Shown: in pieces, positions 16,143 to 40,604 of the stretch
Layout: each line of letters starts with the position of its first letter
Position numbering within the stretch: position 1 is the stretch's first letter
Assembly (NCBI GenBank): GCA_964350935.1
Contig: CAYGLL010000001.1
Coordinates: 38,090 to 102,089 of the forward strand
DNA: 64,000 nt
Origin: an uncultured Candidatus Saccharibacteria bacterium
Lineage (GTDB): Bacteria > Patescibacteriota > Minisyncoccia > Phycocordibacterales > CAYGLL01
Direction of reading: 5' to 3'
Notes under the pieces: model-generated
The model's input: the letters and a program-made list of their open reading frames with translations, nothing else
What the model was told of the DNA's origin: nothing
Database searches by the model: none
Program-made: the position numbers and the translations under genes

Positions 16143-17051
16143 ATGGAACACGTATCCTGTGATCTCTGTGGGGGAACAAATCTAACCGAGATCGATCGTG
16201 TACCTGATCGCTATCCCGGGGCGCACGAAATGTTTTCCCTGGTGCGCTGTAGCCAGTGTTCTCTGGTGTTTGTAAATCCGCGCCCGGCTAAAGCAGAAAT
16301 AGGGAAGTATTACGGAAATGAGTATCCTTCGTTTAAACCTGCGCGAGGACTTTTTTTACGTATTAAAAAATATTTGATGAAACGTGAGGTACGGGAGATT
16401 GCGCAGCACTTCAATAAAAAAGAGATCAGTATTTTTGAAGTTGGCATGGGAAGTGGTGAGGATCTCGCACTTCTTCGTGACTATGGCGGTTTTACGGTTG
16501 CCGGAATGGATGTAAATCCAGCAGCGGTTCACGCTGCGCAACAACAGTTTAATCTCGAGTCGCACTCGGGGGAATTAGAAGAACTAAAAATGCCGAGCGA
16601 TTCTTATGATGTGGTTCGGGCAAAATATGTGGCGAGCCACGTTCATTCACCGAAACTTCTCTTCAGAGAAATTCATCGTATAGTAAAACCCCAGGGAATC
16701 GTGATGTTGTGGATTCCTAATTTCAATTCGTGGGCGCGAAAACTATTTGGTTCATACTGGGAAGGACAGGATCCGCCGCGACATCTTTTTGATTTTACCC
16801 CAGAGACGATAGGGCGATATCTCATCGAAACAGGTTTTGAACTTCAGGAGTTAACCTATAGCATGGCTCCCAATACCTGGCTTCACAGCACTCGAAATGT
16901 ACTCGCGAAGTTTTTTAAAGGAACGACTCACACAGGTAGATTACACACTCTCGGCGCGCTGTTCTTTTTACCTTTTTCTGTTGCGGCGGCACTCTTTAAG
17001 CAAAGCGATCGGATCATCATCATCGCAGAAAAAAATGATTTCATCTTTTAA
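16143..17051 (+). CDS. Class I SAM-dependent methyltransferase with N-terminal zinc ribbon (tandem paralog of 15210-16139)
   Basis: CDLCGG...CSQCS Cys pairs; FEVGMGSGED SAM motif; IVKPQGIVMLWIPN post-I motif. It is collinear with the upstream paralog. Confidence 0.65.
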   Translation: MEHVSCDLCGGTNLTEIDRVPDRYPGAHEMFSLVRCSQCSLVFVNPRPAKAEIGKYYGNEYPSFKPARGLFLRIKKYLMKREVREIAQHFNKKEISIFEVGMGSGEDLALLRDYGGFTVAGMDVNPAAVHAAQQQFNLESHSGELEELKMPSDSYDVVRAKYVASHVHSPKLLFREIHRIVKPQGIVMLWIPNFNSWARKLFGSYWEGQDPPRHLFDFTPETIGRYLIETGFELQELTYSMAPNTWLHSTRNVLAKFFKGTTHTGRLHTLGALFFLPFSVAAALFKQSDRIIIIAEKNDFIF

Positions 17052-18027
17052 AAAAAGCCGCTTGCTCGGTGCATGTGTCGGAACTGTGCTTGCGGTGGGC
17101 ATTTCGTATTTTTTATTACGAACGATCACGTTCGCCGATTTTCTCGAGAACGTACGAAGTGTAAACATTGTGTGGGTTATGGTCGGTTTTTTTCTGTACG
17201 TCGTTGCAAATAGTGCGCGCGTAAAGCGTTTCAGATTTTTAACCGAACCACAATCGCGCGCCATTTCGTTCCACAGATTTTTTTCAATTGTGTGTATCCA
17301 TAATTTTTTTAACGCGGTTATTCCGTTTCGCCTCGGTGAAGCGAGCTACCTCTATCTCATGAAACGGGAGAAGGTACTTTTCGGTGCAAATGCCGCTTCA
17401 CTTCTTGTGTCCCGCGTTCTCGATCTTGCAGTAATCTCACTGGTCTTTCTTCTTTCTCTCATTTTTATTGATCGAAGTATGTTTGCTCCGGACGTGTATC
17501 GCACTACTCTTGCATGGGTGATCGGCCTCATAGTCGGTGTCACTGCGGTTCTGATTGTCTTATACCACATTGTTTCAAAGATCACTTCGCGTGAGGGGAG
17601 AGAGAAAAAAACGCACGGCGGGTGGTTGTTTAACATTCTTGTCGATGTTCGCAGCGCGTTTATTCGTATCATTGAAGGTGGAAATCTCGGACGTCTTGCC
17701 TGTTATTCTTTGTTGGTGTGGGGGTTTGTTTTTCTCTCGGGTTTTGCCCTGATTCAGGCTCTTGGTCTTTCACTCACTCTTTCTTCCGCACTGTTTGTTT
17801 ACGCTTTTCCGGTTTTAACGAGCGTGCTGCCCATACAATTTCCGGGCGGTTTTGGAAGTTACGAAGGTCCCTTTGCGGGAGTTCTCATCCTCATGGGAGT
17901 TGCTATCGAAGTGGCAGTAAGCTCCGCTTTTATCCTTCATGTTATCGAGCTTTTATTTACCGCGTTTCTTGGTGCTCTTGGGTTGTTAGCGTATAGTATC
18001 TTTCGCCCCAAAGAAAACCATTTATAG
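17035..18027 (+). CDS. Flippase-like / lysylphosphatidylglycerol-synthase-TM-domain-like integral membrane protein
   Basis: About 330 aa with roughly 8 TM helices; start chosen at ATG 17035 (MISSFKKS), overlapping the upstream stop. The topology resembles the flippase-like domain that accompanies GT2 polyprenyl-phosphate glycosyltransferases. Confidence 0.45.
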   Translation: MISSFKKSRLLGACVGTVLAVGISYFLLRTITFADFLENVRSVNIVWVMVGFFLYVVANSARVKRFRFLTEPQSRAISFHRFFSIVCIHNFFNAVIPFRLGEASYLYLMKREKVLFGANAASLLVSRVLDLAVISLVFLLSLIFIDRSMFAPDVYRTTLAWVIGLIVGVTAVLIVLYHIVSKITSREGREKKTHGGWLFNILVDVRSAFIRIIEGGNLGRLACYSLLVWGFVFLSGFALIQALGLSLTLSSALFVYAFPVLTSVLPIQFPGGFGSYEGPFAGVLILMGVAIEVAVSSAFILHVIELLFTAFLGALGLLAYSIFRPKENHL

Positions 18028-18032
18028 GTACT

Positions 18033-19412
18033 ATGACCGACTCAGAAACACGTTTTTCCAAGCTATTTATGCGAGGGGAGTTCTCCCTCGGTTTTTGGAG
18101 TTTTGTAAAAAAGGGTGTTGGTTTTTTCGATTCTTTTTTTATTTTAAGTTCGCTCTCGGTCTACCAGTATGGTGTTTATCAGCTTCTTTTGGTCTTGTAT
18201 GCCATTTTTTCTGACATTTTTCATGATGTCTTTTCATCGGCCGTAGGAAATGATCTGACCCGTCTTATCGGAGAGAAGCGAGAGGCTGAGGCGAAAAAAT
18301 TATTTTATCAGTATGCATCATTGCGTATCGGACTTTCTATTATTCCGGCGATTCTATTCTTCTTTATTATTCCTTCTTTTTACCTTTCGACTTTGGGAAC
18401 TGAGGCAATCATCTGGCTCAAAACACTCGCGCTGTTGTTTCCGATTGAAGCTGTCTTTCGTCTGGGATTATTGCTTCTGAACCTGCGTCTAGAATTTAAA
18501 GTGGTTGCCATTCGGCCGACGCTCCAAAAAACCATTCAGCTCGGACTCATCATTATTTGTTTTTTTAGCGGAACACTCACTTTAACCACAATATTTTTCA
18601 TTCAGACCGCAACCCTGGTTATTCTCCTGCTGCTTTTGTATCGACCACTTTTTGCGGCGCTTCGACGATGGAAGGATGTCCAAGCCCACGAAATCGGCCT
18701 TCTCTCAAAAATAATTTTTGGGTATGGAAAGTGGGAAATTCCGCAACTGGCATTTAAGGACTTGATGGGGAAGGTAAACCCGTTTGTTATTAAGCTTTTA
18801 TTAAATACCGAAGCAGTTGGTATTTATGCCGTCGCAAATACGGCGATCTCAGTTCTCAAAGATCTCTTGCCCGTACGTACGCTTTCGATGCTTGTTCCGC
18901 GGAAAGTACACGACGAATTTTTCCGAAACAATCTCTTTTTCTTTGGAACGAAATACTATATTCTTGCGGCCCTGGGCGTTGCGCTTTTCGGTGCCGTGAC
19001 CTACCCCATATTTATTTCGGTATTCTTCCCTAAATTTGCCTCGTCGCTTCCCGTCTTCTATGTTTTAGTGCCCTCAATTGTCATTTTCGCTGGAGTAAAG
19101 CTTCTGAGCATTTTATTGTTGGCGCGCCGCCGACAGCGTTTTTTGTTTATACAGTCAATGATTGATAATATCATCCAGATCACCCTCATGTTCATTCTTG
19201 CGCCGAAGTTTGGGTTAATTGGCTTTGCCGCAGCGATTGTCGGCGGCGATTTATTGCTCCAGATACTACGCTACGCATATCTACGGCGCACCGGTTTCGT
19301 ACCCGCGTTTCCTGTCGATATCTTCTTTAACTTTCAAGCCGAAGAGGATCGGAAAGTGCTCACGCTCATTCGGTCTAATCTCTTCAAGTTTTTGCGCATT
19401 AAAGGCGCGTAG
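18033..19412 (+). CDS. Wzx-like polysaccharide/oligosaccharide flippase (MOP superfamily, polysaccharide biosynthesis protein)
   Basis: 459 aa with about 12-14 TM helices and a typical hydrophobic periodicity. Confidence 0.65.
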   Translation: MTDSETRFSKLFMRGEFSLGFWSFVKKGVGFFDSFFILSSLSVYQYGVYQLLLVLYAIFSDIFHDVFSSAVGNDLTRLIGEKREAEAKKLFYQYASLRIGLSIIPAILFFFIIPSFYLSTLGTEAIIWLKTLALLFPIEAVFRLGLLLLNLRLEFKVVAIRPTLQKTIQLGLIIICFFSGTLTLTTIFFIQTATLVILLLLLYRPLFAALRRWKDVQAHEIGLLSKIIFGYGKWEIPQLAFKDLMGKVNPFVIKLLLNTEAVGIYAVANTAISVLKDLLPVRTLSMLVPRKVHDEFFRNNLFFFGTKYYILAALGVALFGAVTYPIFISVFFPKFASSLPVFYVLVPSIVIFAGVKLLSILLLARRRQRFLFIQSMIDNIIQITLMFILAPKFGLIGFAAAIVGGDLLLQILRYAYLRRTGFVPAFPVDIFFNFQAEEDRKVLTLIRSNLFKFLRIKGA

Positions 19413-19417
19413 CTATT

Positions 19418-20824
19418 ATGAATGCATCTCCTAAAGTAATTCTTGTTCCTGTCACCAGCAATTTCTTTGCGCGTAACTTTTTGCGCACCGAGGCGCTTTC
19501 TATCTTGAAGGGCCAGAGGGAAGTGCGTCTTGTTTTTTTAGTACCGAAAACCCAGCTTGATCATTATCGATCGACGTATCCGTTCGACAATGTCGAGTTT
19601 GATGTACTGCCGGAAATTGTTCGTACCGCAGCGAGCGAAATTTTCTTCACCTTTCTAGAACGATCAAGTATACACAGCTATCGCGTGAAGGCTGATGCGA
19701 AGGTCACCTTCTTTCGCGGATCAAGACGTGTGTCTAAACTTCAGTATTTGAAACGCGCTCCAGTCTACGTCTATAAGCGTTTTTTATATGCTCTAGGTTC
19801 ATTAGGGAAGCCGTGGCGCGGGCTGGTAAGGCGTATCTACGGCGCGTATCCGCGGAATTTTTTCAATGATATTTTTCAAAAGCACTCCCCGAGCTTGGTG
19901 TTTTGCCCAACGATGGTTTGGAGCGAGGAATATTGCCTTTTGCGCGAAGCTAAGCGCCGTGGCGTGCCGTCAGTTGGAATGGTATTTAGTTGGGACACCT
20001 TTTTCAGCAAGACTTTTTTAAGATTGCACCCCGACACGCTTGTGGTACAGACTGACATGATCAAGAGCCAGGCAGAAAAGCTCGGCGATTTTACGGGCGA
20101 GATCAGGGTAACGGGTGTTTTGCAGTATGATCTCCACTTCACCAAAAAAGATTTTCTCCCGCGGGCAGATTTTTTGAAAAAACTTGGCGGTGATCCTTCG
20201 AAAAAAATTATTCTGTATGCGCTTTCAGGCAAAGCAGGGCTTGAGGCAGATATGGCCGCTCTGGTCGCGCTTGCTGAAGCCGTACAGAAGGGAGAAATTA
20301 CGACCCCGGTTCAAATTCTGGTCCGACCGTATCCCCGCTATGATTTTAAAGAAAAAACTATTCACAATATGAAAGAAAAGTATGGCGTACTGGTCGAGGC
20401 CTCAACCACTGCAATCGGCGATGGTAGTGGCTGGGAAATGGACGAGCGCTCGATTGAATTTTTGGAAAATAGTTTGTACCACAGTGATGTGGTCGTCTCG
20501 ATGTACTCGACTTTTTTTATCGAGGGGGCAATTTTCGGGAAACCCCTGGTTGCCGCGGCTTTCGATTATCCTACGGAGCGTCCGTACTTCGATTCAGCTA
20601 AACGTTTTTTTGAACTCTGGGATCATCTCCATATTCTTAAGAGTTACCGCGGAATTGCTCTAGGGACAACGCGCGAGCTGTTTCTCAAAGAAATTAACAC
20701 GGCACTTCGCGGGGAGGATTCCTATAAAACTGGCCGCGAGGAAATTGTTATGGCACAATGTCAGTTTAAGGATGGAAGGTCAGCTGAGCGCCTCGCCACC
20801 GTGATTGTTAACGCGGTAGAGTAG
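19418..20824 (+). CDS. TagB/TagF-like CDP-alcohol (glycero)phosphotransferase family protein, paralog 1
   Basis: GT-B-like protein ending in the family-typical ...QCQFKDGRSAERLATVI C-terminal motif (DG[KR][AS]xER). Confidence 0.55.
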   Translation: MNASPKVILVPVTSNFFARNFLRTEALSILKGQREVRLVFLVPKTQLDHYRSTYPFDNVEFDVLPEIVRTAASEIFFTFLERSSIHSYRVKADAKVTFFRGSRRVSKLQYLKRAPVYVYKRFLYALGSLGKPWRGLVRRIYGAYPRNFFNDIFQKHSPSLVFCPTMVWSEEYCLLREAKRRGVPSVGMVFSWDTFFSKTFLRLHPDTLVVQTDMIKSQAEKLGDFTGEIRVTGVLQYDLHFTKKDFLPRADFLKKLGGDPSKKIILYALSGKAGLEADMAALVALAEAVQKGEITTPVQILVRPYPRYDFKEKTIHNMKEKYGVLVEASTTAIGDGSGWEMDERSIEFLENSLYHSDVVVSMYSTFFIEGAIFGKPLVAAAFDYPTERPYFDSAKRFFELWDHLHILKSYRGIALGTTRELFLKEINTALRGEDSYKTGREEIVMAQCQFKDGRSAERLATVIVNAVE

Positions 20825-20847
20825 TTTCATAGAACGCAGATTACGGC

Positions 20848-22242
20848 ATGCAACACATTTTTCTAACGCTTTCGAATAGGGCGGTGTACCGCAATTTCTT
20901 CTTTTTTCCGAAGAGCTTTTTTTATACGCTCTGTAAAACAGCGAAAGATAAAAATTTTAAAGTTATTGTTCTGGTTGAGGCAAAAGATGTTCCTAAATAT
21001 CGCGAGCAGATCAAGAGTGAGATTGGCCTCCATTGCGATATCGAAGGTGTTGAGGTAACGATACCTGTGACTCGCCTCGGTAAACTATTCTATTTTTTCT
21101 ATTCTTACCTTATTTACACTGACACAACGAAACTACTTGCGACATTCGGTACGCGTCCTGATGAGCCGCCGGCGGGCGGAAAGCGTTATCTTCAGCCTCT
21201 CAAATGGCTTATTTCACGCACGTTCGGTTTAATTCCTCCCATAAAGACGAAACTTGTTCCCTGGCTTTTCATTCGTATATATTCGGATAAGCGGCCGTTT
21301 CAGACGCTGTTCAAAAAATATTCACCGAAACTTATTTTCACGTCTCACCTCTACGGGTGGTTCGATCAGACGCTTCTTGCGGAAGCGAAGCGCCAGAAAG
21401 TAAAAACCCTGGGCATGGCCGCAAACTGGGATCACCTGGATAAATATTTTCTGCCGCTTCATGTCGACACTTTTGTAGCTCAGAGTAATGAGAGAATTGA
21501 TCCGGCGATGCGGTATCAAAATTATTCACGCGATTCAGTTGTTATCTCAGGCTACCCGCATTTTGATTTCATTACGGAACGCTCGTATGTAATCTCGCGC
21601 GCCGATGTGTTAAAGAGCCTCTCGCTTCCACCCGATGCAAAATTTATTCTCTATGCATCTGGCAGCACCTATTGCCCTGATGAGCCTGAGGTTATCGGAG
21701 AAATAATTAAATGGATCGAGGCCGGGGTGTTCGGCAGTAATGTTTATCTTCTGGTACGGCCCTACTTGGGCGGCCGTGGCAAAGATCGTGAGTTTGACGA
21801 GGAAAAATTTAATACGTTTGAACAGCATCCGCGGGTGAGGTTTTACCGCAAAGATTTTTGGGCAGATCTTAACTTCGGCATTGAGTTTATGAATATTCTT
21901 CGTCAGGCTGATGTAGTAGTGGCAATCTTCACCACTATGGCTCTTGAAGCGGTGGTGCTCGACCGCCCTGTTGTTGCCGTGGGTTTTGATGGCTTTCGCA
22001 TACGGCCGTTCCGTCGTTCGGTCAGACGTTTTGAGCTCTTCGTTCATTTTCAACAGGTACGCAAAACAGGTGCGATGCAGACAGCGCGAACGTTCCCCGA
22101 GCTTCAGAATATGATCAAAGAGAATATCGACAATCCGACGCTTAAGGCTAAGGAGCGGGCGGTAATGAGGGAGTTTATCGCGGGGCCGCTCGACGGGAAG
22201 GCATCGGAGCGAATTACTAAGGTTATAACAGATAATTTGTAA
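20848..22242 (+). CDS. TagB/TagF-like glycerophosphotransferase family protein, paralog 2
   Basis: Collinear similarity to 19418-20824 (compare ...AEAKRQKVKTLGMAANWD with ...REAKRRGVPSVGMVFSWD); C-terminal DGKASERITKVI motif. Confidence 0.55.
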   Translation: MQHIFLTLSNRAVYRNFFFFPKSFFYTLCKTAKDKNFKVIVLVEAKDVPKYREQIKSEIGLHCDIEGVEVTIPVTRLGKLFYFFYSYLIYTDTTKLLATFGTRPDEPPAGGKRYLQPLKWLISRTFGLIPPIKTKLVPWLFIRIYSDKRPFQTLFKKYSPKLIFTSHLYGWFDQTLLAEAKRQKVKTLGMAANWDHLDKYFLPLHVDTFVAQSNERIDPAMRYQNYSRDSVVISGYPHFDFITERSYVISRADVLKSLSLPPDAKFILYASGSTYCPDEPEVIGEIIKWIEAGVFGSNVYLLVRPYLGGRGKDREFDEEKFNTFEQHPRVRFYRKDFWADLNFGIEFMNILRQADVVVAIFTTMALEAVVLDRPVVAVGFDGFRIRPFRRSVRRFELFVHFQQVRKTGAMQTARTFPELQNMIKENIDNPTLKAKERAVMREFIAGPLDGKASERITKVITDNL

Positions 22243-22245
22243 TAC

Positions 22246-22887
22246 ATGCAGTGGGAAGATTGGAAAGAAAAAGATGGCAGCAAGATTGTTGCAGGCGGAA
22301 AGGCTTCAACGCTTGCGGTGAAGTTTGCTCCAAGTACCACGGCGCAGCTTTTAGATATTGGAAGCGGTAATGGGCTTTTCATTCAGGCGATCAGCTCATC
22401 GTCACTTTCCATTACTGCCGCTGACCTCGATAATTTTCTTTCACCTGAGGCCGGAAAGCGCAGTAGCGCGTTTGTAAAACTTAATATTGATGAAGCGTGG
22501 CCGGTGGCGAATGCTTCGGTTGATATGATCACCATGTGGAATGTGCTTGAACATGCCGAGAATCCGGCGCATGTGTTGCGAGAAGCCGATCGAGTACTTC
22601 TCCCGGGCGGTGTCTTTATTTTCTCAATGCCGAATATTTTCAATCTGAAAAATCGCCTCTATTTTTTACGTACAGGAGAAATGAGACGCTTTCGCGGAAC
22701 GAATAGCCACATCGCGATTCTTACCGCGACCGTTTTAAAGAAATTGTATAAAAAGTACTTTGAGTGTCTTGAGGTTGGGTACGCCGCAGTGGACAGGGTG
22801 TGGGGAGGAGGTGTGGTACAGAAAATACTCCCTGAAAACCGTCTTTTCGGTCATACGATTTACTACGTTCTTAAAAAGAAGCCATAA
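22246..22887 (+). CDS. Class I SAM-dependent methyltransferase
   Basis: LLDIGSGNG SAM motif; LLPGGVFIFSMPN post-I motif; paralogous to the minus-strand gene at 24549-25313. Confidence 0.6.
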   Translation: MQWEDWKEKDGSKIVAGGKASTLAVKFAPSTTAQLLDIGSGNGLFIQAISSSSLSITAADLDNFLSPEAGKRSSAFVKLNIDEAWPVANASVDMITMWNVLEHAENPAHVLREADRVLLPGGVFIFSMPNIFNLKNRLYFLRTGEMRRFRGTNSHIAILTATVLKKLYKKYFECLEVGYAAVDRVWGGGVVQKILPENRLFGHTIYYVLKKKP

Positions 22888-22898
22888 TCGCGGGTCTA

Positions 22899-22927
22899 TT
22901 GTCAATTACTCGCCAAGCGTGTATTGT
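22899..22927 (+). promoter_or_regulatory. Promoter TTGTCA-17-TATTGT with extended motif ggTCTATTGTCAAtt
   Basis: Found upstream of the NeuB-like gene; it shares the CTATTG(A/T)CA extended -35 with four other sites. Confidence 0.4.
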
Positions 22928-22974
22928 AACGATTTGTCGGGTGTCGGAGTTTACTTTCTACACAGAGAAAAAGT

Positions 22975-24519
22975 ATGGCCCAAACAAATACGCGATTTGA
23001 TTTCAATAACCTCTTCACCTTTGAGATGGCTAATAACCACCAGGGAGATGTTTTGCATGGAAAAAAAATAGTTGAGGCGATGTCGAAGATTGCCAAGGAG
23101 TTTAACATTCGTGCTGCGGTAAAACTTCAGTTCCGTAATCTCGATACTTTCATTCACCCTGACTATCGAAAGCGCACCGATGTAAAACACATTCCACGTT
23201 TTCTCTCGACCGAACTTTCTAAAAAAGAATTTAAGACACTTGTTGACGCTGTTCGCGAAGAGGGGCTCTTTACCATGGCAACTCCTTTTGATGAAGTTTC
23301 AGTAGATTTTTTAACTGACCTTGGCGTTGAAATTATTAAGGTTGCAAGTTGCAGTGCCCACGACTGGCCGCTCTTGGAAAAAATTGCAGCAGTCGGAAAA
23401 CCGGTTATTGCATCCGTCGGAGGACTCACGCTTCCCGAAATTGATCGCGTGGTAAGTTTCTTCGAACATCGTGGAACTGATTTTGCACTTATGCACTGCG
23501 TTGCGGTTTATCCGACACCGTCTGAAAAACTTTCACTCGAACAGATTGCTCTCATGAAAGAGCGTTACCCGCAGCTTACCGTTGGCTTTTCAACTCACGA
23601 GCCGCCGGAAAATACAACCGCAATCGCGCTCGCATACGCTAAAGGCGCTCGCATCTTTGAAAAGCATGTCGGTGTTCCCACAAAAACAATTACGTTAAAT
23701 TCATATTCGGCAAACCCGGAACAAGCTCGCGCGTGGGTCGCTTCGTTTGTCGAAGCGGTTAAATCAATCGGTGAAGGAGAGCGGGTGATTGAAGAGGCTG
23801 AACGTGTCGACCTCAAATCTCTGATTCGCGGTGTCTACGCAAGGAAGCCTATTAAAAAAGGTCAGAAACTCAAAACGTCAGATGTATTTTTCGCCATGCC
23901 GTTTCAGGGAGATGAACAGATGAAGAGCGGTCGTTTTCGTGAAGGATTCGTGGCTGATAAAAATTATAAGAAAAACGAAGCATTGAATCGTTCGATTGAG
24001 CCCGTGCGGCCTACCAAAAAAGACATTGTGTACGGAACGGTCCGGGAGGTAAAAGCGATGTTAAACAAAGCACGCATTCCGCTCTCGCATGATTTTATGG
24101 TTGAGATCTCGCACCACTATGGATTGGAGAAGTTCAACGAAACCGGCTGCGTCATTATTGATTGTGTGAATCGTGAGTACGCCAAAAAACTCATTATTCA
24201 GTTACCCGGTCAGTTTCATCCCGTTCACTACCACAAACTTAAGGACGAAACGTTCCAGGTTCTCTCAGGGAGCATGGTTGCCAATATCGAAGGAAAGGAA
24301 CGTACGCTCTATCCTGGAGACACGCTGTGGGTTCCACGTGGAGTGTGGCACAGCTTCCACAGCGATACCGGGGTTATTTTTGAAGAGATTTCAACGACTG
24401 CATATGACATGATGGGCGATTCGTATTATGTCGACAAAAAAATTGCCGCAACACCGCGTGAGGTTCGCAAGACAAAACTTAATAACTGGGGACGCTACCA
24501 GTTTGAAAACGAGGAGTAA
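22975..24519 (+). CDS. NeuB-family nonulosonic (sialic/legionaminic/pseudaminic) acid synthase with SAF domain and extra C-terminal cupin domain
   Basis: FEMANNHQGD (AEIGxNHnG-like) TIM-barrel motif, SAF region (IKKGQKLKTSDVFFAMP), and a roughly 150-aa C-terminal cupin (GQFHPVHYHKLKDETFQVLSG...GDTLWVPRGVWHSF). Confidence 0.75.
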   Translation: MAQTNTRFDFNNLFTFEMANNHQGDVLHGKKIVEAMSKIAKEFNIRAAVKLQFRNLDTFIHPDYRKRTDVKHIPRFLSTELSKKEFKTLVDAVREEGLFTMATPFDEVSVDFLTDLGVEIIKVASCSAHDWPLLEKIAAVGKPVIASVGGLTLPEIDRVVSFFEHRGTDFALMHCVAVYPTPSEKLSLEQIALMKERYPQLTVGFSTHEPPENTTAIALAYAKGARIFEKHVGVPTKTITLNSYSANPEQARAWVASFVEAVKSIGEGERVIEEAERVDLKSLIRGVYARKPIKKGQKLKTSDVFFAMPFQGDEQMKSGRFREGFVADKNYKKNEALNRSIEPVRPTKKDIVYGTVREVKAMLNKARIPLSHDFMVEISHHYGLEKFNETGCVIIDCVNREYAKKLIIQLPGQFHPVHYHKLKDETFQVLSGSMVANIEGKERTLYPGDTLWVPRGVWHSFHSDTGVIFEEISTTAYDMMGDSYYVDKKIAATPREVRKTKLNNWGRYQFENEE

Positions 24520-24534
24520 AGGTGTAAAACAAAA

Positions 24535-24565
24535 AAGAGTGCCACCAATCAGGCACTCTTTTTTA
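24535..24565. terminator. Bidirectional intrinsic terminator between convergent genes
   Basis: AAGAGTGCC-ACCAATCA-GGCACTCTT 9-bp stem flanked by an A-run and TTTTTT. It overlaps the stop codon of the minus-strand methyltransferase gene. Confidence 0.75.
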
Positions 24566-25313
24566 ATACATAGCACACACGACGGCCAAACCACTCGCTG
24601 CGGGGAAGTACCTTCAGATGTTTCTTAAATTTCTTTCCGGTAATGTGCCTCAGGAGCGACGCGATTCTGCCCCAGAAAGGAAGCGAGCCGGTCTGATAAA
24701 TTGTTTCAACAAGTTCAAATTCAGTCGCGTATGTTTTTTCAAGTGTTGATCTCGTAAGGAAGAGAAGGTGGTTATTATCGCGCGTCCAGGGCGGCATATT
24801 CCCGGTTAAAAAATATTTTGCCCGGAAAGTGATGTTGTAGGGTGACGGTACTGAAAAGGTAAAGATACCTCCAGGTTTTAAGATACGCTTTGCTTCGCGC
24901 ATGATAAAAAAAGGATTCTCCAAGTGCTCGATTGTTTGGAATGCACAAACGAAATCAACGGAAGAATCGGGAAGGGGAATGCGTTCGAAATTGATGTCGA
25001 TCTTTAAAAACTCAATACGCTTCTTAGCCTCGTCCGAAAGATAGGAAACAATATCGGCCCCGTACATTTTTTTAAAGTAGTCGGGCTCTGAAAGCAGAGC
25101 TGCTCCTGATCCGCAACCTATATCAAGTGTGGCAGTATAGGGAGGATTCTGAAGATAGGTGGTAAGGATGTGTTCGTAGGTGCCGTCGGCAATTGTCCAG
25201 GGAACCATGCCTTCGATCTTGTGGTACGCAATGTCTTTCTCTTTTGCCTCAACTGAGGAGATGTATTTCACAGGGGCTAGAATATCAAGATTTAGGCAAT
25301 TTTCAAAGAACAA
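24549..25313 (-). CDS. Class I SAM-dependent methyltransferase (paralog of 22246-22887)
   Basis: LDIGCGSG SAM motif; ILKPGGIFTFSVP post-I motif; C-terminus ...RRVCYVLKKSA parallels ...HTIYYVLKKKP of the paralog. Confidence 0.65.
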   Translation of the reverse strand: MFFENCLNLDILAPVKYISSVEAKEKDIAYHKIEGMVPWTIADGTYEHILTTYLQNPPYTATLDIGCGSGAALLSEPDYFKKMYGADIVSYLSDEAKKRIEFLKIDINFERIPLPDSSVDFVCAFQTIEHLENPFFIMREAKRILKPGGIFTFSVPSPYNITFRAKYFLTGNMPPWTRDNNHLLFLTRSTLEKTYATEFELVETIYQTGSLPFWGRIASLLRHITGKKFKKHLKVLPRSEWFGRRVCYVLKKSA

Positions 25314-25363
25314 GAAAGTTGTGTTATTAAACAGTCTCGATTAGAGTTGTAACCATACTAGTC

Positions 25364-26722
25364 ATGAAAACAGTCTTTGTCTCAATCCTTTCCGGTATTG
25401 AAGCTAAGAGTATTTTGCGTACCAATGTGGTGGCGCGGATACTTGAACGGGAGGGCACCCGCGTCGTCCTATTAGTTAAAACGGCTGAGCGCGCCGAGTT
25501 TTATAAAAAGGAATTTCACCACGGGCATCTTGTCTATGAGGTCATCGGGCCGGAAGGTTTTTCACGCTTCGATCCGTTTATGGAATGGTTGAAGCACTAT
25601 CTTGTTAACACGAAAAGCCAGAAACTGTATCGACGGCTTGCTTTTCTTGAAAACAAAAATATTTTTGCGTATGTCTCAAGCTCGGTTTTCTCCGGTATTG
25701 TTTCAAATCGATTTTTTCGTAGTCTTTCAAGGTGGTTTGACCGTTTTGTAGTCCGCGATCACAACTTCGACGGTCTTCTTGAAAAGTATAATCCTGACGC
25801 TATTTTTCTTGCCAACCTTTTTGATCCACGGGAAATCAGCCTTTTGCGCGGGGCCCGAATAAGAAAAATTAAAACCATAGGATTTATCAACTCGTGGGAC
25901 AAAATTACGGCAAAGGGGTTTGTACGACTACTGCCTGATACACTGATTGTTCCCAATGATATTGTTAAAGACGAGGCGCTTCGCTACGTTAACATTTCCG
26001 CTTTGCGAATAGTTGTTTCCGGACCGCCGCAGTACGACACTTATTTTAATAGGGAAGGAATTGAGAGCCGCGAATCATTTTTAAAAAAAATTCACGCTGA
26101 TTCTTCGAAAAAACTCATTGTCTTTGCCCCGATGGGGTTGGCATTCAGCAACTCTGACTGGCAGGCGATTGATTACCTGCATGAAGTGATTGAGGGCCAT
26201 TTTAAAAATGATGCCGAGCTCCTCGTGCGTTTTCAGCCGAACGATTTTTTCGGTGATGAGGGTTTCAAAACACGCCCGTGGCTCAGGTTCGATCTTCCGG
26301 GCACCCGTTTTACCACAACGCGCGGCGTTGACTGGGATATGACGACTGACGATTTGATACATTTGAAAAACACACTTCACCATATGCATATGCTGATTTC
26401 GTACGCGTCCTCAATTGCGATTGACGCGGCCATTTTTGATAAGCCGGTGATTAACATTGGTTTTGAATTGCGTGATGATCAGTCGCCTCTCAAAACACCC
26501 ACCCTGCGTTACACCACCGCACATTATTCTAAGGCGCTTGATACGGGCGGTATTTTTTTGGCAACGACAAAAGAACATTTGATTGAGAAGATTCGAACCT
26601 ACCTCTCTGATCCCGCGACTGATGCCGGCGGGAGATCCCGATTGGTACAGGAACAGTGCTCGTTTACCGACGGAAAAGCCGGAGCGCGAATTGCAGAATC
26701 TATCCTTTCATGCCTACAATGA
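25364..26722 (+). CDS. TagB/TagF-like glycerophosphotransferase family protein, paralog 3
   Basis: Collinear with paralogs 1 and 2; C-terminal QCSFTDGKAGARIAESI motif. Confidence 0.55.
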   Translation: MKTVFVSILSGIEAKSILRTNVVARILEREGTRVVLLVKTAERAEFYKKEFHHGHLVYEVIGPEGFSRFDPFMEWLKHYLVNTKSQKLYRRLAFLENKNIFAYVSSSVFSGIVSNRFFRSLSRWFDRFVVRDHNFDGLLEKYNPDAIFLANLFDPREISLLRGARIRKIKTIGFINSWDKITAKGFVRLLPDTLIVPNDIVKDEALRYVNISALRIVVSGPPQYDTYFNREGIESRESFLKKIHADSSKKLIVFAPMGLAFSNSDWQAIDYLHEVIEGHFKNDAELLVRFQPNDFFGDEGFKTRPWLRFDLPGTRFTTTRGVDWDMTTDDLIHLKNTLHHMHMLISYASSIAIDAAIFDKPVINIGFELRDDQSPLKTPTLRYTTAHYSKALDTGGIFLATTKEHLIEKIRTYLSDPATDAGGRSRLVQEQCSFTDGKAGARIAESILSCLQ

Positions 26723-26735: not shown

Positions 26736-27980
26736 ATGAACCAGCCACTACCACCTAAACGAAAAATTTGTGTCGTGAACGGAAAGCGTGGCGGTTTTAA
26801 CGCGCTTCTTCCCACCATGCGTGCGATCGATCAGTCGCCCGATCTTCTACTCCAGGTGGTGCTCACCGATATGCATCTTTCAAAGCAGTTTGGTCATACA
26901 CTCGACTATGCCAAGCGTTTTATCGATATCTCAAAAACCGTTCCTCTGAATCAGGCCGGTGATACACAGATTGATCGCATTCACGCGCTCTCGCGGGGTT
27001 TGGCGGGTATTGCAGATGCGTTTAATGAACTTAAGCCGGATATCGTTCTTTTGCTCGGAGACCGCTCAGAGACGCTTATAGCCGCTTTTGCAGCGGTTCA
27101 GCTGAAGATACCGGTTGCCCATATACAAGGGGGGGAGGTGTCGGGGAATCTTGATGAGATTCATCGCCACGCCATTACCAAACTTTCGCATATTCATTTT
27201 ACTGAAACAGAACTTGCACGTCGTCGAGTTCTTGAGCTCGGTGAAGAAATCTGGCGCGTGCATCGCGTAGGTGCTCCTTACATTGATTTTATTAATCTCA
27301 GACTATACACACCAAAAGAAGAGGTTCGGAAGAAATTCAACATGGGTTCCGATGAGAACTTTATTCTGGTGCTCCAGCATCCGGTCACCACTGAGCCTGA
27401 GAAGTCGAATGCTCATATGAAAGAAATTCTTGCGGCTGTTAAAGAAACTGGTTTAAAAGCGATTGTGGTCTACCCGTGTTCAGATCCCGGTTATCAGGGA
27501 ATCATTGATGCGATCGAAGAAGAAAAAAATAATCCCGAGATTTCGATTTACAAAAATATTCCGGCGGAAGACTTTATCGGATTGCAGGCCGCAGCGTCAG
27601 TTTTTGTCGGAAACTCAAGTGCGGGTGTGTATGAAGCGCCGTACCTCAAGTGTCCTTTTGTAAATGTCGGCCGTCGACAGATCAAACGCGAGCGCGAGAA
27701 CAACTCGATCGACGTTTCTCCCACCAAAGAATCAATCGCGGCGGGAATTCATAAAGCTCTTCACGACGAATCATTCAGAAAATCTCTCGAAACTGTTTCG
27801 TTTGTGTACGGCGACGGCACTGCATACCGCAGTATCGTCAACGTGCTTCGAAAAATTCCACTGGGACGACGTTTGTTTGAAAAGCGTCTCACCTACATGA
27901 GTACCCGCCGCCGTCTCTATAATCGCTATATAAAAAGGTACGTCGATCTTCTTCGTCGTTTAAAACCGTCGAGAAAATAG
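26736..27980 (+). CDS. UDP-N-acetylglucosamine 2-epimerase, hydrolysing type (NeuC-like)
   Basis: ICVVNGKRGGFNALLP...LLLGDRSETL...HIQGGEVSG...HRHAITKLSHIHF motifs of the UDP-GlcNAc 2-epimerase family. Start set at ATG 26736 (MNQPLPP); the ORF-track start at 26583 overlaps the upstream gene. Confidence 0.7.
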   Translation: MNQPLPPKRKICVVNGKRGGFNALLPTMRAIDQSPDLLLQVVLTDMHLSKQFGHTLDYAKRFIDISKTVPLNQAGDTQIDRIHALSRGLAGIADAFNELKPDIVLLLGDRSETLIAAFAAVQLKIPVAHIQGGEVSGNLDEIHRHAITKLSHIHFTETELARRRVLELGEEIWRVHRVGAPYIDFINLRLYTPKEEVRKKFNMGSDENFILVLQHPVTTEPEKSNAHMKEILAAVKETGLKAIVVYPCSDPGYQGIIDAIEEEKNNPEISIYKNIPAEDFIGLQAAASVFVGNSSAGVYEAPYLKCPFVNVGRRQIKRERENNSIDVSPTKESIAAGIHKALHDESFRKSLETVSFVYGDGTAYRSIVNVLRKIPLGRRLFEKRLTYMSTRRRLYNRYIKRYVDLLRRLKPSRK

Positions 27981-29345: not shown

Positions 29346-29368
29346 GACCTTTGTTGGTGGTTGGTGCA

Positions 29369-29399
29369 ACCGCCCTTGCGAAAGCAGGGGCGGTTTTTT
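29369..29399 (+). terminator. Rho-independent terminator
   Basis: CCGCCCTTGC-GAAA-GCAGGGGCGG (one G-U pair) followed by TTTTTT. Confidence 0.8.
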
Positions 29400-29415
29400 C
29401 TTGCGAACGTGTCTA

Positions 29416-29444
29416 TTGACAAAATCTAATATTTGGTCTATTAT
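29416..29444 (+). promoter_or_regulatory. Sigma70-like promoter TTGACA-17-TATTAT with extended motif gtCTATTGACAaaa
   Basis: Perfect -35, 17-nt spacer, TATTAT -10, about 50 nt upstream of ATG 29494. Confidence 0.55.
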
Positions 29445-29493
29445 ATTCCTCAGTTGTTTTTCGAAAAACCTTCAACCAAAGAAAGTTCTCACT

Positions 29494-31212: not shown

Positions 31213-32130
31213 ATGAGAATTATTGTCACGGGCGGATCGGGATTTATCGGTTCGCATCTCATTGAAGAGTTGGTTGCACACGGTCATCAGGTTTTTTCTG
31301 TTGATGTGCGCGACCCGCTTTCAAAGGTGAAAGGCGTTACGCATACAACTGGAGATATTTGCGACCATGAAACGCTCACTAAAACATTTGCCAGTTTTAA
31401 ACCTGATGCTGTTGTCCATCTTGCCGCACTCCCGTCTATTCAGCAGTCAATCAAAGAGCCTCACGTTTCGCTCCGTACGAATGTAGCCGGAACCTATTCA
31501 GTAATTGAGGCAGCGCGATCATCAGGTGCTTCGCGCGTTGTTTTTGCTTCATCAGCCGCAGTTTACGGCAAGACGACGGAAGAGATGAAAGGAAAACCCA
31601 TTTCAGAAAGTGTGGCGCTTCAACCGTTGAATCCATACGCTTTGGCAAAAAAAATGGGTGAAGAGTTTATGCGAATGGCAGCTGACGAAAAATTGTGGAA
31701 ATCAATCGATGCTGTGTCGTTACGCTTTTTCAATGTGTACGGTCCGCGCAAACGCCGCGACTCGCCGTATCGAACGGCAATCGAAACGTTCACAGAAGTG
31801 TGGAAAGAAGGAAAGCCGTTTCCCATTTTTGGCGACGGAACCCAGCGTCGTGATTTTATATTTGTTAAAGATGTTGTCCGGGCCTTGCGTTTAGCGGCTG
31901 AGCGAACAGAAAAGTTTAAAGGCGAGATTATAAACATTGCGTATGGTAAAAACTTTTCCGTTATTGATGCGGCAAACTTTATCGGCGGTGAAACACATCC
32001 CAAAGATTTTTTACCGGCACGACCCGGCGAGATTAAAGAGTCTTTAGCCGATACCTCCAAGGCAAAAAAACTTTTAGGCTGGTCGGCGGAAGTTTCGTTT
32101 AAAGACGGGTTACAGGAATTAAAAAAATAA
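31213..32130 (+). CDS. NAD-dependent epimerase/dehydratase (UDP-sugar 4-epimerase-like)
   Basis: IIVTGGSGFIGSHL Rossmann motif, YALAK (YxxxK) catalytic motif. Confidence 0.8.
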   Translation: MRIIVTGGSGFIGSHLIEELVAHGHQVFSVDVRDPLSKVKGVTHTTGDICDHETLTKTFASFKPDAVVHLAALPSIQQSIKEPHVSLRTNVAGTYSVIEAARSSGASRVVFASSAAVYGKTTEEMKGKPISESVALQPLNPYALAKKMGEEFMRMAADEKLWKSIDAVSLRFFNVYGPRKRRDSPYRTAIETFTEVWKEGKPFPIFGDGTQRRDFIFVKDVVRALRLAAERTEKFKGEIINIAYGKNFSVIDAANFIGGETHPKDFLPARPGEIKESLADTSKAKKLLGWSAEVSFKDGLQELKK

Positions 32131-33583: not shown

Positions 33584-34297
33584 ATGGCAAACAAACCAGA
33601 AGTGCTGGCGACGGTGACTGCGCGCGGCGGATCAAAGCGCATTCCAAAAAAGAGCATCGTGCCGCTTTTAGGAAAACCCTCAATGGTGTGGGTTTTGGAG
33701 GTGCTTAAGAAATCAAAAACAATAACGCGCATAATTGTTGATACCGATGATGAAGAAATGGCTAAGGTGGGGAGAGCGGCCGGGGCTGAGATCCCGTTCA
33801 TGCGACCTAGGGAACTCGCCAGTGATTCCGCAGGACACCTCGCAGTTTTAAAACACGAACTCGAATTTTTTAAAGAAAAAGAAGGATACGTACCAGACGC
33901 AGTTGTGTTGATTCAGCCGACATCGCCACTCGTTGAAGCCGCTGACATTGATGCGGCAGTTGAACTCCTACTCAAAGAAAATCTCGACTCTGTGGAAACG
34001 GTTTTTGAGGTTGCAACCATTTTCCATCCCTATCGTGTTCGTGCAATTGATGAAAAAGGGGAGACCGGTTTTTTTATGCCGAAAGAGCGCGCGGAGGCGA
34101 TGAAAACCGGCGTCTGGCCAAAAATGTATGCAGTTGATGCAGTATTTTGTTTTAAGCCAAACAATCTCTACGAGTATGGAACAATTCAGGGCAAAAAAAG
34201 TAAGTCGGTCATCATACCGCGCGAGAAAGCTTGTGACATCGACGATCCCGCAGATATTGCGATTGCCGAAGCTCTGCTCAGAAAATTTAAATCATAA
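33584..34297 (+). CDS. Acylneuraminate (nonulosonate) cytidylyltransferase, NeuA/CTP_transf_3 family, copy 1
   Basis: ATVTARGGSKRIPKK...QPTSPL motifs. Confidence 0.75.
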   Translation: MANKPEVLATVTARGGSKRIPKKSIVPLLGKPSMVWVLEVLKKSKTITRIIVDTDDEEMAKVGRAAGAEIPFMRPRELASDSAGHLAVLKHELEFFKEKEGYVPDAVVLIQPTSPLVEAADIDAAVELLLKENLDSVETVFEVATIFHPYRVRAIDEKGETGFFMPKERAEAMKTGVWPKMYAVDAVFCFKPNNLYEYGTIQGKKSKSVIIPREKACDIDDPADIAIAEALLRKFKS

Positions 34298-35636: not shown

Positions 35637-36668
35637 ATGAAATCGAGCAAGGTTAAATTAGGTTCAAAATGGGTTGGCGACGGAGAGCCGGTCTATATTA
35701 TTGCCGAAGGCGGCCTCACTAACTGGGGTGAATTAAAGTTGGCCAAAAAACAGGTTGACGCGTCGATGGCTGCAGGGGCCGACTGCGTAAAGTTTCAGGC
35801 ACAGACGACCGAAGAATTGGTTTCAAGAAAAGTTGATCCCTACTGGTTTAAGAGGCTCAAATATAAGGAGCTTTCGCATGGCGAACTCAAAAAACTCTGG
35901 GACTATGCCTCAGTTCGAAATATTGACTGCTTTATCACCGCTCACACTGATGTTGATCTTGATTTTCTCGACAAAGAATTGAATGTGCCCTTTTTGAAGG
36001 TTGGTTCGGGTGAATCAATGAATGAGCGATTTTTAAAAAATGTTGGTTCACGCAAAAAGCCCGTGGTGGTTTCGTTGGGTCTTCATTTAAACAATGCTGA
36101 GGTTAAAAAGACTATCTCAACTCTTGAAAAGGCGGGGGCACAGGGAATCGTTATTTTACATTGCAATACGGTCTATCCAACGCCTCCCGCAGCGAATCAC
36201 CTGCGCCGCATTTCAGAACTCAAAAAACTTTTTCCAGAGTATCCGATCGGCTATTCAGATCACACCGTCGGGAATCACATGGTTCATGCAGCGATCGCCT
36301 TAGGTGCGACAGTTATTGAAAAGCATCTTTCATTTGATGTGACTGATAAGCGCTCGTTTGATTGTCCCGGATCGTGCACCCCGGATACCCTGCAAGATCT
36401 GGTTAAAGAGGTTCGTGAGATCGAAGCGGCGCTTAAAGATCCAGGTAAAAAGCGTATTGAAGTGGTTATAAATGCACGAAAGTGGGCACAACAATCAGTT
36501 GTTGCAAAGGCCGATATTCCAAAGGGAACCAGGCTTACCGCTTCAATGTTTTCATTCAAGCGACCCGGAGTTGGGCTGGGACCTGAAGAAACAACAAAGC
36601 TTCTTGGCAAAACGACTAAACGAAAAATTACAGCCGACGAATTAATTCTGAAAAAAGATGTTCGCTAA
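35637..36668 (+). CDS. NeuB-family nonulosonic acid synthase, copy 2 (with SAF domain)
   Basis: VYIIAEGGLTNWG...CVKFQ TIM-barrel signature and SAF domain (IPKGTRLTASMFSFKRP). Confidence 0.75.
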   Translation: MKSSKVKLGSKWVGDGEPVYIIAEGGLTNWGELKLAKKQVDASMAAGADCVKFQAQTTEELVSRKVDPYWFKRLKYKELSHGELKKLWDYASVRNIDCFITAHTDVDLDFLDKELNVPFLKVGSGESMNERFLKNVGSRKKPVVVSLGLHLNNAEVKKTISTLEKAGAQGIVILHCNTVYPTPPAANHLRRISELKKLFPEYPIGYSDHTVGNHMVHAAIALGATVIEKHLSFDVTDKRSFDCPGSCTPDTLQDLVKEVREIEAALKDPGKKRIEVVINARKWAQQSVVAKADIPKGTRLTASMFSFKRPGVGLGPEETTKLLGKTTKRKITADELILKKDVR

Positions 36669-37239: not shown

Positions 37240-37266
37240 AAAACACCCTGTCGCGGAGGGTGTTTT
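37240..37266. terminator. Hairpin terminator (AAAACACCCT-GTCGCGG-AGGGTGTTTT) at the 3' end of rfbB
   Basis: Perfect 10-bp stem; it overlaps the rfbB stop codon. Confidence 0.6.
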
Positions 37267-38966: not shown

Positions 38967-38988
38967 AAGCTTTCCTATCCTAGTATTT

Positions 38989-39005
38989 TTGACCTCAGGG
39001 GTCAA
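38989..39005. promoter_or_regulatory. Perfect inverted repeat TTGACC-tcagg-GGTCAA in the divergent promoter region
   Basis: Reads as a -35 hexamer on both strands; on the minus strand it is followed 17 nt later by TAGGAT. It may be an operator. Confidence 0.3.
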
Positions 39006-39914: not shown

Positions 39915-40604
39915 ATGATACCGAAAGTGATTGGTTTTGACTTTGACGGAGTGATTACAGTTGCGGGCGAGAGGGCAAAACAAGTGGGGTGGAGCGTCCT
40001 TCTCATGGAGCTAGTGGCCGAGGGACACCCAAAAAATCTGCCGGAGGTTTTTGCAGCCGAGCAGGAACGGTTTGTCGGTAAAAATGCCGTCGTTAAAGGT
40101 GATCGATATGACATTCTCTGGGGAATGTGGCGTGGGCTTAATTACCCGGGAGAAAAATGTTGTACGTTGGTTAATGAGTGTGCTTGGCGCTACGACAGTA
40201 TTACCCGAAAACTCATCGTTGAGTCTGGCGTCCACCCCTCAACTCATCTCGCACTTCAAAACTGGAAGAGGAAAGGGATTCCGCTCTACATCATTTCAGC
40301 AACGCCGGAAGAAGCGCTTGTGCAAAGTGTCCGGGAACTTTCGCTCGAAGGGTTCGGCTTCACTAAGATTCTGGGTTTTCCCAAAAAGAAACCCGATCAT
40401 CTGCGCGAGATCATTGCGGAGAAGAGGATTCAGTCCGGCGAACTTCTTTTTATCGGTGACTCTTCCGGCGATTACAAAGCGGCACAGACTGTGCAGTGCG
40501 GATTCATCGGGGTTGGAAATGAGTTCAATCAGTGGACCACTCAAAGCCAGCCATTTCCGGTTGTACGGTTGCTAACAGAGATTGATACTGTGGTAGGTCT
40601 CTAG
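39915..40604 (+). CDS. HAD-superfamily hydrolase (probable sugar-phosphate phosphatase)
   Basis: Motif I VIGFDFDGVIT and a C-terminal GDSSGD motif IV. Confidence 0.65.
   Translation: MIPKVIGFDFDGVITVAGERAKQVGWSVLLMELVAEGHPKNLPEVFAAEQERFVGKNAVVKGDRYDILWGMWRGLNYPGEKCCTLVNECAWRYDSITRKLIVESGVHPSTHLALQNWKRKGIPLYIISATPEEALVQSVRELSLEGFGFTKILGFPKKKPDHLREIIAEKRIQSGELLFIGDSSGDYKAAQTVQCGFIGVGNEFNQWTTQSQPFPVVRLLTEIDTVVGL

Follow-up and report, generated by a model that had tools for sequence, protein, structure and literature searches.

TagF-related paralogs without the catalytic histidines: candidate nonulosonate transferases in a Patescibacteria glycan locus

What do three TagF-like genes do in a glycan locus that makes sugar acids? 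The window examined here is a 64,000-nucleotide stretch of an uncultured Candidatus Saccharibacteria bacterium (assembly GCA_964350935.1, contig CAYGLL010000001.1, positions 38,090 to 102,089 of the forward strand). It encodes three paralogs, which we call P1, P2 and P3 (table 1). By descent they belong to the TagF superfamily, yet they fail the defining catalytic features of the TagB/TagF phosphotransferases. From sequences and structural models we consider it probable that P1–P3 are membrane-associated glycosyltransferases of a TagF-derived branch, which would transfer nonulosonate (or a related ulosonate) from its cytidine monophosphate (CMP) ester to a lipid-linked glycan acceptor.

The preliminary description of this stretch proposed three collinear paralogs of roughly 450–470 residues, and this holds. 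The MAFFT alignment is collinear at about 27–29% identity, and pairwise BLASTP gives E = 3e-45 for P1–P3 over the full length, 2e-31 for P1–P2 and 1e-27 for P2–P3. At 26.2, 30.2 and 38.0 bits respectively, P1, P2 and P3 weakly exceed the gathering cutoff (22.1 bits) of Pfam family PF04464, Glyphos_transf, in matches that span part of the model only. None of them matches Capsule_synth (PF05159; KpsC/KpsS, GT107) at E ≤ 0.01, and we rejected an identity as KpsC/KpsS β-Kdo transferases on that ground; the TagF fold was correctly called. The C-terminal motif DG(K/R)(A/S)xER(I/L), said to end each protein, is found in P1 (DGRSAERL, nucleotides 20771–20794) and in P2 (DGKASERI, 22192–22215). P3 departs from it, with DGKAGARI (26669–26692) and thus Ala for Glu. 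The corresponding C-terminal site of S. aureus TarL reads DGRSSERL.

If P1–P3 descend from TagB/TagF stock, do they retain its chemistry? An invariant pair of histidines is required for activity in TagB, TagF and TarL, the enzymes studied with it (PMC10901376). The first, H300 of TarL (H444 of TagF), is stacked on W299 and serves as the base; the second, H433 of TarL (H584 of TagF), protonates the CMP leaving group (PMC10901376). Seven genuine TagF-like proteins, drawn from annotated plasmid records, served as references, among them a Listeria TarL-like protein (W299-H300, K-M-H433-P) and S. epidermidis TarF. The window family matches these seven in hhalign with 98.8–99.3% probability; the superfamily relationship with TagF/TarL is therefore real. 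Common to both are G-x-P-x-x-D, A-P-(T/M), the (D)YSS...KP nucleotide loop and the C-terminal DG..S.ER helix. The column of TarL H433/TagF H584, on the other hand, is occupied by Y305 in P1, Y306 in P2 and Q291 in P3, a placement on which hhalign and three MAFFT modes agree. Nor is there a conserved N-domain His anywhere among 165 family members sampled from 80 Patescibacteria loci of GTDB.

What stands in place of the first histidine? In TarL, W299-H300 lies on the loop after β15 and the A-P-T motif has its P395 between β18 and β19, so that two strands intervene. The AlphaFold2 models of P1 and P3 have exactly two strands between the one before S-W-D and the YAPM-type strand equivalent to A-P-T. 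Because the strand topology of TarL and both models agrees, we read the N-domain W-H as most likely replaced by an invariant W-D in P1–P3, an assignment made by counting strands. The preliminary description had called the three proteins TagB/TagF-like CDP-alcohol phosphotransferases (CDP, cytidine diphosphate). Both catalytic histidines are absent from all three, a finding that it had itself set down in advance as a refutation, and by that test the name fails.

The predicted local distance difference test (pLDDT) score is 94.1 for the model of P1, which has a GT-B fold, and 93.4 for that of P3. Residues 66–145 form a basic, aromatic-rich helical insertion of about 80 residues without a transmembrane segment (17 Lys + Arg against 4 Asp + Glu in P1). 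This insertion fits monotopic membrane binding as in TagF/TarL, and with it a lipid-linked acceptor.

Which residues does the family conserve instead? Across the 165 Patescibacteria members D179 and R289 (P3 numbering) are present in every sequence, W178 in 160, P292 in 157 and H387 in 146; in the C-terminal helix, R424, D436, G437 and R442 hardly vary. At the column of the second TagF histidine the same members carry Pro (62), Gln (50), His (35) or Tyr (7). An exhaustive search with P2 returned 1270 representatives of 50%-identity clusters at E ≤ 1e-10. Among the best 149 of these, W-D occurs in 144–145 of the 145 sequences aligned there, and the histidine column, aligned in 142, holds His in 91, Tyr in 39 and Pro in 6. 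One proteobacterial clade strictly conserves GSWDQPTT and R(C/P)HP. The commonest state of the family is the Asp of W-D together with an HP-type His (R-x-H-P); P1–P3 represent lineages that lost the HP His too, and the invariant Arg two residues upstream of it is the obvious substitute.

Clustering divides the family into several subfamilies. The usual trio combines a P3-type protein, an HP-retaining type and a third type; P1 and P2 of the window belong to rarer subfamilies. We found about 60 Patescibacteria orthologs of P1 (37–49% identity), and the exhaustive search found orthologs of P2 at up to 49% identity. P3 matched 457 proteins at E ≤ 1e-5, the 120 matches listed being 44–58% identical. 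The close homologs of P1 and P3 all come from Patescibacteria (Parcubacteria-type) metagenome-assembled genomes, namely Sungbacteria, Vogelbacteria, Giovannonibacteria and Paceibacterota. The window itself belongs to a Patescibacteria (Parcubacteria) genome. Nearly all members are annotated as ‘hypothetical’ or as ‘CDP-glycerol glycerophosphotransferase’. Some W-D members (P0305, P0309, P0321, P0324, P0325, P0330 and P0336) are 843–944 residues long, several matching the query in two stretches, and look like tandem two-domain transferase fusions.

Where do these genes occur? NeuB, NeuC or a CMP synthetase lies within 10 kb in 65 of the 80 loci. When the comparison is confined to the 45 loci that span 18 kb or more, 40 contain at least one type of nonulosonic acid (NulO) gene, 36 at least two and 25 all three. 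The orientation is also shared, 115 of 125 NeuB, NeuC and CMP synthetase genes lying on the strand of the family gene. Family copies number one in 28 loci, two in 18, three in 32 and four in 2, and a long locus most often has three paralogs, a single NeuB and a single CMP synthetase. A NeuC gene immediately 3' of the family gene was considered as a general rule and rejected (9 of 74 loci); the nearest NulO gene lies at a median of 1.4 kb.

The strongest neighbourhood evidence comes from outside the Patescibacteria. On a plasmid of Rhizobium sp. WL3 a full-length homolog (WP_147885260.1; 205 bits with the family hidden Markov model, HMM) directly follows genes for NeuB, KpsF, a glycosyltransferase, NeuC and a CMP synthetase. 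A Rickettsiales metagenome-assembled genome and one further contig have the order NeuB–NeuC–homolog–CTP_transf_3; the neu cluster of Polaromonas sp. YR568 also contains the homolog. In these clusters it takes the place held by the sialyltransferase gene in E. coli K1 neuDBACES. The same Rhizobium plasmid (L094:2946-8795) has, upstream of neuB, four consecutive ‘hypothetical’ genes for proteins of 450–510 residues. With the family HMM three of these give weak matches (E from 1e-6 to 5e-10), chiefly in the C-terminal DG..G.R helix, and on these sequence matches they may be further, very divergent paralogs.

Which activated donors could the window itself supply? CMP-nonulosonate genes had been described as adjacent, and indeed two NeuB-type synthases, a NeuC and two CMP-ulosonate synthetases surround or follow the paralogs (table 1). 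The reported lack of TagD, TarI and TarJ was likewise borne out: Pfam, phmmer and tblastn searches of the 64-kb window found none of them. No open reading frame (ORF) of the window matches PF01467, and IspD appears merely as a weak secondary match on other nucleotidyltransferases. With a genuine TagD from a Phaeobacter plasmid as query, phmmer against all window ORFs returned nothing at E < 1e-4 and the best tblastn match had E = 0.19. The two CMP-ulosonate synthetases are the sole cytidylyltransferases, the remaining nucleotidyltransferases being RmlA-like or sugar-1-phosphate types. A CDP-sugar donor from the minus-strand gene pair at 37265–39005 was rejected, this pair being RmlA-like plus RmlB (deoxythymidine diphosphate (dTDP)-glucose 4,6-dehydratase, 421.6 bits against a cutoff of 365). 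Since TagD, TarI and TarJ are missing and this pair is not a CDP pathway, CMP-ulosonic acids are the only cytidine-activated donors for which the window has genes.

Is there a precedent for a TagB-like protein that transfers a nonulosonate? The top curated match of P1–P3, and of all relatives that give any match, is NCBIfam NF046086, the BFO_1060 family glycosyltransferase. P1 scores 40.1 bits (E = 2e-10), P2 34.0 and P3 36.8, and relatives reach 57.9 bits, the E-values ranging from 1e-8 to 1e-16. BFO_1060 is a Tannerella forsythia gene aligned with Tanf_01245 and TFUB4_00887, which encode TagB-domain proteins (PMC5420450). When either of these is knocked out, the terminal pseudaminic acid (Pse) or legionaminic acid (Leg) derivative is lost and the CMP-sugar pool persists (PMC5420450). 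Like P1–P3, the Tannerella proteins are TagB-like GT-B proteins whose genes lie with those for nonulosonate biosynthesis. They differ in length, the Tannerella model having about 365 positions and P1–P3 450–470 residues with the basic helical insertion. They differ also in motifs: the Tannerella proteins have DXD, D/E-D/E-G and HP motifs (PMC5420450), whereas P1–P3 lack the HP His at the aligned position.

With TagB, TarF, TagF and TarL the family shares the GT-B fold, the membrane-binding insertion and the motifs G-x-P-x-x-D, A-P-T, (D)YSS...KP and DG..S.ER. It is set apart from them in that P1–P3 have neither the W-H-G base nor the leaving-group His of K/R-x-H(-P), and in that the family genes are linked to neu genes with no CDP-polyol pathway nearby. 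Bacterial sialyltransferases, as later papers summarise them, use an N-domain Asp as base, the His of a C-domain HP motif and a CMP-sugar-acid donor (Freiberger 2007, cited in PMC5420450 and PMC7439481). So far as those summaries describe the GT38, GT52 and GT80 sialyl- and polysialyltransferases, the wider W-D family resembles them in its Asp, its R-x-H-P and its placement in neu operons, like that of neuS. We detected no sequence homology between GT38, GT52 or GT80 and the W-D family, and the likeness is one of function and motif only. E. coli K1 NeuS and NeuE (DUF6716) were tried as relatives and rejected, both scoring below zero against the family HMM (NeuS, −2.2 bits). Also discarded was the idea that the Streptomyces coelicolor cluster for teichulosonic acid, a Kdn polymer, carries TagF-like genes; SCO4879 is NeuE-like, SCO4880 is NeuA and SCO4881 is NeuB (PMC3479208). 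Literature searches found nothing that links nonulosonic acids with glycerophosphotransferases or with Patescibacteria.

How might such enzymes work? We picture P1–P3 as cytoplasmic GT-B enzymes of TagB/TagF stock that would have kept the cytidine-nucleotide-binding C-terminal half and changed the catalytic chemistry. A nonulosonic or related ulosonic acid in CMP-activated form would be the donor, supplied by the products of the NeuB, NeuC and CMP-synthetase genes nearby. In the (S/N)-W-D loop the invariant Asp would activate a hydroxyl of the lipid-linked glycan, and this hydroxyl would attack C2 of the sugar acid as CMP departs. Stabilisation of the leaving CMP would fall to the invariant Arg of V-R-x-x-P and the Ser-Ser/Thr loop, aided in most relatives by the R-x-H-P histidine. 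Homology, fold, the lost histidines, the conserved residues and the gene neighbourhood are observed; which donor is used, what the Asp does, the stereochemistry and the order in which the enzymes act are what we infer in this scheme. The three paralogs may serve different acceptors or linkages, for instance in priming, extending and capping. We prefer this to three different donors because in the commonest loci a single NeuB and a single CMP synthetase accompany three paralogs. The successive and distinct transfer steps suggested in the preliminary description are plausible. The adjacent Wzx-like protein would next flip the product and pass it to the Wzy_C-TPR enzyme. The same description had suspected a different activated donor that adds phosphodiester-linked or nonulosonate residues. 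A nonulosonate donor is the better supported half of that suggestion; phosphodiester transfer is unlikely, because both histidines essential in TagB/TagF/TarL are missing from P1–P3.

Several observations weigh against nonulosonate transfer, or against steps on the way to it. The similarity to NF046086, at 34–58 bits, is far under the curated cutoff of 200. P1–P3 lack the HP histidine that sialyltransferases use. Bacillus subtilis SpsB, a TagB-like protein encoded beside legionaminic acid genes, is dispensable for spore-surface Leg (PMC7439481), and therefore adjacency and a TagB domain together are no proof of NulO transfer. Five of the 45 long loci, and also Giovannonibacteria locus L002, have no NulO gene within 10 kb despite three paralogs, L002 containing heptose-type genes instead. 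The equivalence of W-H and W-D depends on strand counting, and hhalign and MAFFT put the TagF W-H-G 14–21 residues upstream of S-W-D, on a predicted helix. There the sequence aligners drop it on a non-conserved Ala-Arg (164–165 in P3); we set this sequence-only register aside, as it conflicts with the strand numbering of TarL. Loss of the first histidine alone does not exclude phosphotransfer: the glycerol-phosphate transferase Cps7A (PF04464) has Tyr at that position and keeps the second His (PMC11666461). Finally, Foldseek searches of the PDB with both models found generic GT-B neighbours only, at template modelling (TM) scores of about 0.5–0.58, with no sialyltransferase in the top 50. The neighbours were uridine diphosphate (UDP)-N-acetylglucosamine (UDP-GlcNAc) 2-epimerases (the best), MshA and, at rank 37 for P3, TagF. 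This result has no power to separate the hypotheses.

Could P1–P3 be GT-B transferases for some other donor, the linkage to neu genes reflecting a shared, big glycan locus? The donor would be a sugar (heptose, deoxyhexose or sulfoquinovose) activated by UDP, guanosine diphosphate or dTDP, or a CMP- or CDP-linked moiety such as phosphonate or Kdo. This is the main rival, and we regard it as unlikely. In its favour the window encodes dTDP-sugar (RmlA/B/C/D-like), aminosugar, C-methyl and sulfoquinovose-synthase-like enzymes, with just two other recognisable glycosyltransferases nearby (GT1 at 14120 and GT2 at 1633). The paralogs of loci L002, L006, L032 and L050 stand beside heptose or NTP_transferase genes, and the prevalence of three paralogs per single NulO pathway also accords with it. 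So does a W-H-G-type relative on Segatella copri plasmid NZ_CP085933.1 (L011:5161-6354), a TagF-like gene directly after aepX, aepY and a phosphonoacetaldehyde reductase gene; this arrangement suggests that a member of the classical branch transfers phosphonate and that donor use is plastic within the superfamily. Yet in Proteobacteria the homolog lies within or beside neuB–neuC–neuA with no other unusual donor pathway adjacent, and the closest curated family is one of NulO transferases. The C-terminal half, moreover, is homologous to a cytidine-nucleotide site, and CMP-ulosonates are the window's only cytidine donors.

Much less probable is that P1–P3 are classical TagB/TarF/TagF polyol-phosphate transferases building a teichoic-acid-like polymer from CDP-glycerol or CDP-ribitol made elsewhere in the genome. 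All three do pass the PF04464 threshold, and their nucleotide-loop and C-terminal motifs recur in TarL; Patescibacteria are regarded as monoderm; and three paralogs recall the trio of TagB, TarF and TagF. Cps7A, described above, shows that a genuine glycerol-phosphate transferase may have its first His replaced. Against all this, P1–P3 lack both histidines, and four phylogenetically distant groups keep the family genes linked to neu genes. TagD, TarI and TarJ are all missing from the window; a small TagD/RfaE-like HxGH nucleotidyltransferase does occur in 3 of the 80 related loci, but in each case embedded in the NeuB-cupin module.

Hardest of all to credit is that P1–P3 are not transferases but GT-B-fold epimerase-like enzymes or non-catalytic scaffolds of a glycan assembly complex: the epimerases heading the Foldseek list, the weak precomputed PF02350 matches of a few proteobacterial relatives and the loss of the canonical TagF dyad would suit it, but P1–P3 have no Epimerase_2 match while a true NeuC is present, a TM score of about 0.55 at 12–14% identity denotes a shared fold only, and the invariant D179, R289, D225, D436 and R442 point to selection on an active site.

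Table 1. Positions in the window of the three paralogs, their motifs and the genes around them.
Feature	Position	Strand	Remarks
LPG_synthase_TM-family membrane protein	16897..18027	+	Pfam; also upstream in syntenic locus L004
Wzx-type flippase candidate (Polysacc_synt_3)	18033..19412	+	Pfam; 5 nt ahead of P1; recurs in related loci
P1, 468 aa	19418..20824	+	Intact ORF; TagF-fold GT-B paralog
P1 S191-W192-D193	19988-19996	+	W-D loop
P1 V-R303-P-Y305-P	20321-20335	+	Tyr at second catalytic His site of TagF/TarL
P2, 464 aa	20848..22242	+	Intact ORF; TagF-fold paralog, most divergent of the trio
P2 N193-W194-D195	21424-21432	+	W-D loop
P2 V-R304-P-Y306-L	21754-21768	+	Tyr at second catalytic His column
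SAM (S-adenosylmethionine)-dependent methyltransferase	22246..22887	+	Between P2 and NeuB-cupin
NeuB-type ulosonate synthase + cupin (lyxose/mannose-isomerase-like) fusion	22975..24519	+	Pfam NeuB 1.5e-44, Cupin_2
SAM-dependent methyltransferase	24549..25271	-	Sole minus-strand gene inside block
P3, 452 aa	25364..26722	+	Intact ORF; paralog from commonest Patescibacteria subfamily
P3 S177-W178-D179	25892-25900	+	W-D loop
P3 V-R289-F-Q291-P	26225-26239	+	Gln at second catalytic His column
P3 S349-S350...D354	26408-26425	+	Nucleotide loop; H387 further on
NeuC, hydrolysing UDP-GlcNAc 2-epimerase	26775..27980	+	Directly 3' of P3; TIGR03568 361.9 bits vs cutoff 235.9
SDR (short-chain dehydrogenase/reductase) epimerase/dehydratase	31213..32130	+	Candidate early legionaminic-type step, inferred; matches below equivalog cutoffs
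Sugar-1-phosphate nucleotidylyltransferase, 229 aa	32133..32822	+	Candidate early legionaminic-type step, inferred; below equivalog cutoffs
CMP-ulosonate synthetase 1 (CTP_transf_3, PseF-like)	33584..34297	+	Pfam/NCBIfam
NeuB-SAF-type nonulosonate synthase	35637..36668	+	Pfam/NCBIfam
HAD phosphatase	39915..40604	+	Rest of NeuB-cupin module
GFO/IDH/MocA oxidoreductase	40688..41776	+	Rest of NeuB-cupin module
CMP-ulosonate synthetase 2 (CTP_transf_3)	41779..42495	+	Rest of NeuB-cupin module
Wzy_C (O-antigen ligase / O-oligosaccharyltransferase superfamily) + TPR fusion, 795 aa	45448..47835	+	Candidate periplasmic-face ligase/polymerase of finished glycan

The paralogs are embedded in a plus-strand glycan locus of more than 40 kb. 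Its 5' part encodes dTDP-sugar-type SDRs, a C-methyltransferase, a DegT aminotransferase, a GT1 glycosyltransferase, two methyltransferases and the LPG_synthase_TM protein. There follow the Wzx-like flippase, P1, P2, a methyltransferase, NeuB-cupin, the minus-strand methyltransferase, P3 and NeuC. Beyond NeuC come a UDP-sulfoquinovose-synthase-like SDR, two ORFs of unknown type, an SDR, the sugar-1-phosphate nucleotidyltransferase, a NUDIX protein, the first CMP-ulosonate synthetase and NeuB-SAF. Farther along lie the HAD and GFO genes, the second CMP-ulosonate synthetase, a histidine phosphatase, a kinase and the Wzy_C-TPR protein. A gene for the last is found at the locus edge in 20 of the 80 related loci and also ends L004; L097 has an LPG_synthase_TM–Wzy_C fusion.

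In L004, L019, L076, L081 and L089 NeuB-cupin is part of a fixed module, CMP synthetase–(small HxGH nucleotidyltransferase)–NeuB-cupin–HAD–GFO, beside a P3 ortholog. The module is split by about 15 kb in the window; it is contiguous and abuts the P3 ortholog in L004, L076, L081 and L089. It may provide a Kdn-type route from a sugar phosphate.

How are the sugars of this locus modified? The SDR at 28128–29345, just 3' of NeuC, matches NF041015 with 433 bits (below the cutoff of 575) and is UDP-sulfoquinovose-synthase-like. Such an SDR occurs in 8 of the 80 related loci, and L004 adds a PAPS_reduct gene there, which hints at a sulfonated sugar in these glycans. An asparagine synthase-type amidotransferase is encoded at 2588–4471 and at least seven SAM methyltransferases, including a C-methyltransferase, across 6563–39831; together they imply that the sugars are heavily tailored. 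Five sizeable ORFs have no Pfam match: 29–1636, 4479–6464 (minus strand), 29227–30153, 30347–31162 and 47978–49009. Those at 29227–30153 and 30347–31162 also lack an NCBIfam match and a counterpart in any of the 80 related loci. The minus-strand ORF at 4479–6464 (661 residues) has a counterpart of 663 residues at the equivalent position in L004.

What does the W-D family add to the picture of nonulosonate transfer? Transfer by a TagB-like protein already has a precedent in Tannerella. New are the size and breadth of the distinct W-D branch, the organisation as a trio in Patescibacteria, the loss of the catalytic histidines and the existence of tractable proteobacterial members. Transferases of the Leg and Pse type are poorly known relative to the biosynthetic enzymes (PMC5420450, PMC7439481). 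Here a large, widespread and mis-annotated family becomes a concrete candidate for a NulO transferase, recognisable by W-D in place of W-H-G and by R-x-x-P; well over 1000 protein clusters are probably misnamed as ‘CDP-glycerol glycerophosphotransferase family protein’. Culturable hosts, Rhizobium sp. WL3, Polaromonas sp. YR568 and Herbaspirillum, have the gene in or beside a neu cluster, and a knock-out is therefore feasible.

The finding also bears on the make-up of the envelope of the ultra-small Patescibacteria, and hence on their attachment to host cells. A bolder proposal, which we advance tentatively and hold to be doubtful, is that the W-D/R-x-(H)-P branch, with at least 1270 50%-identity clusters, is a missing major bacterial family of nonulosonate (Leg-, Pse- or Kdn-type) transferases or polymerases. 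The Patescibacteria trio would then be the primer, extender and polymerase of a phosphate-free, teichoic-acid-like anionic polymer of sugar acids built on a lipid carrier. If this were true, wall teichoic acid would have been functionally replaced by a polymer that evolved from the teichoic-acid machinery itself.

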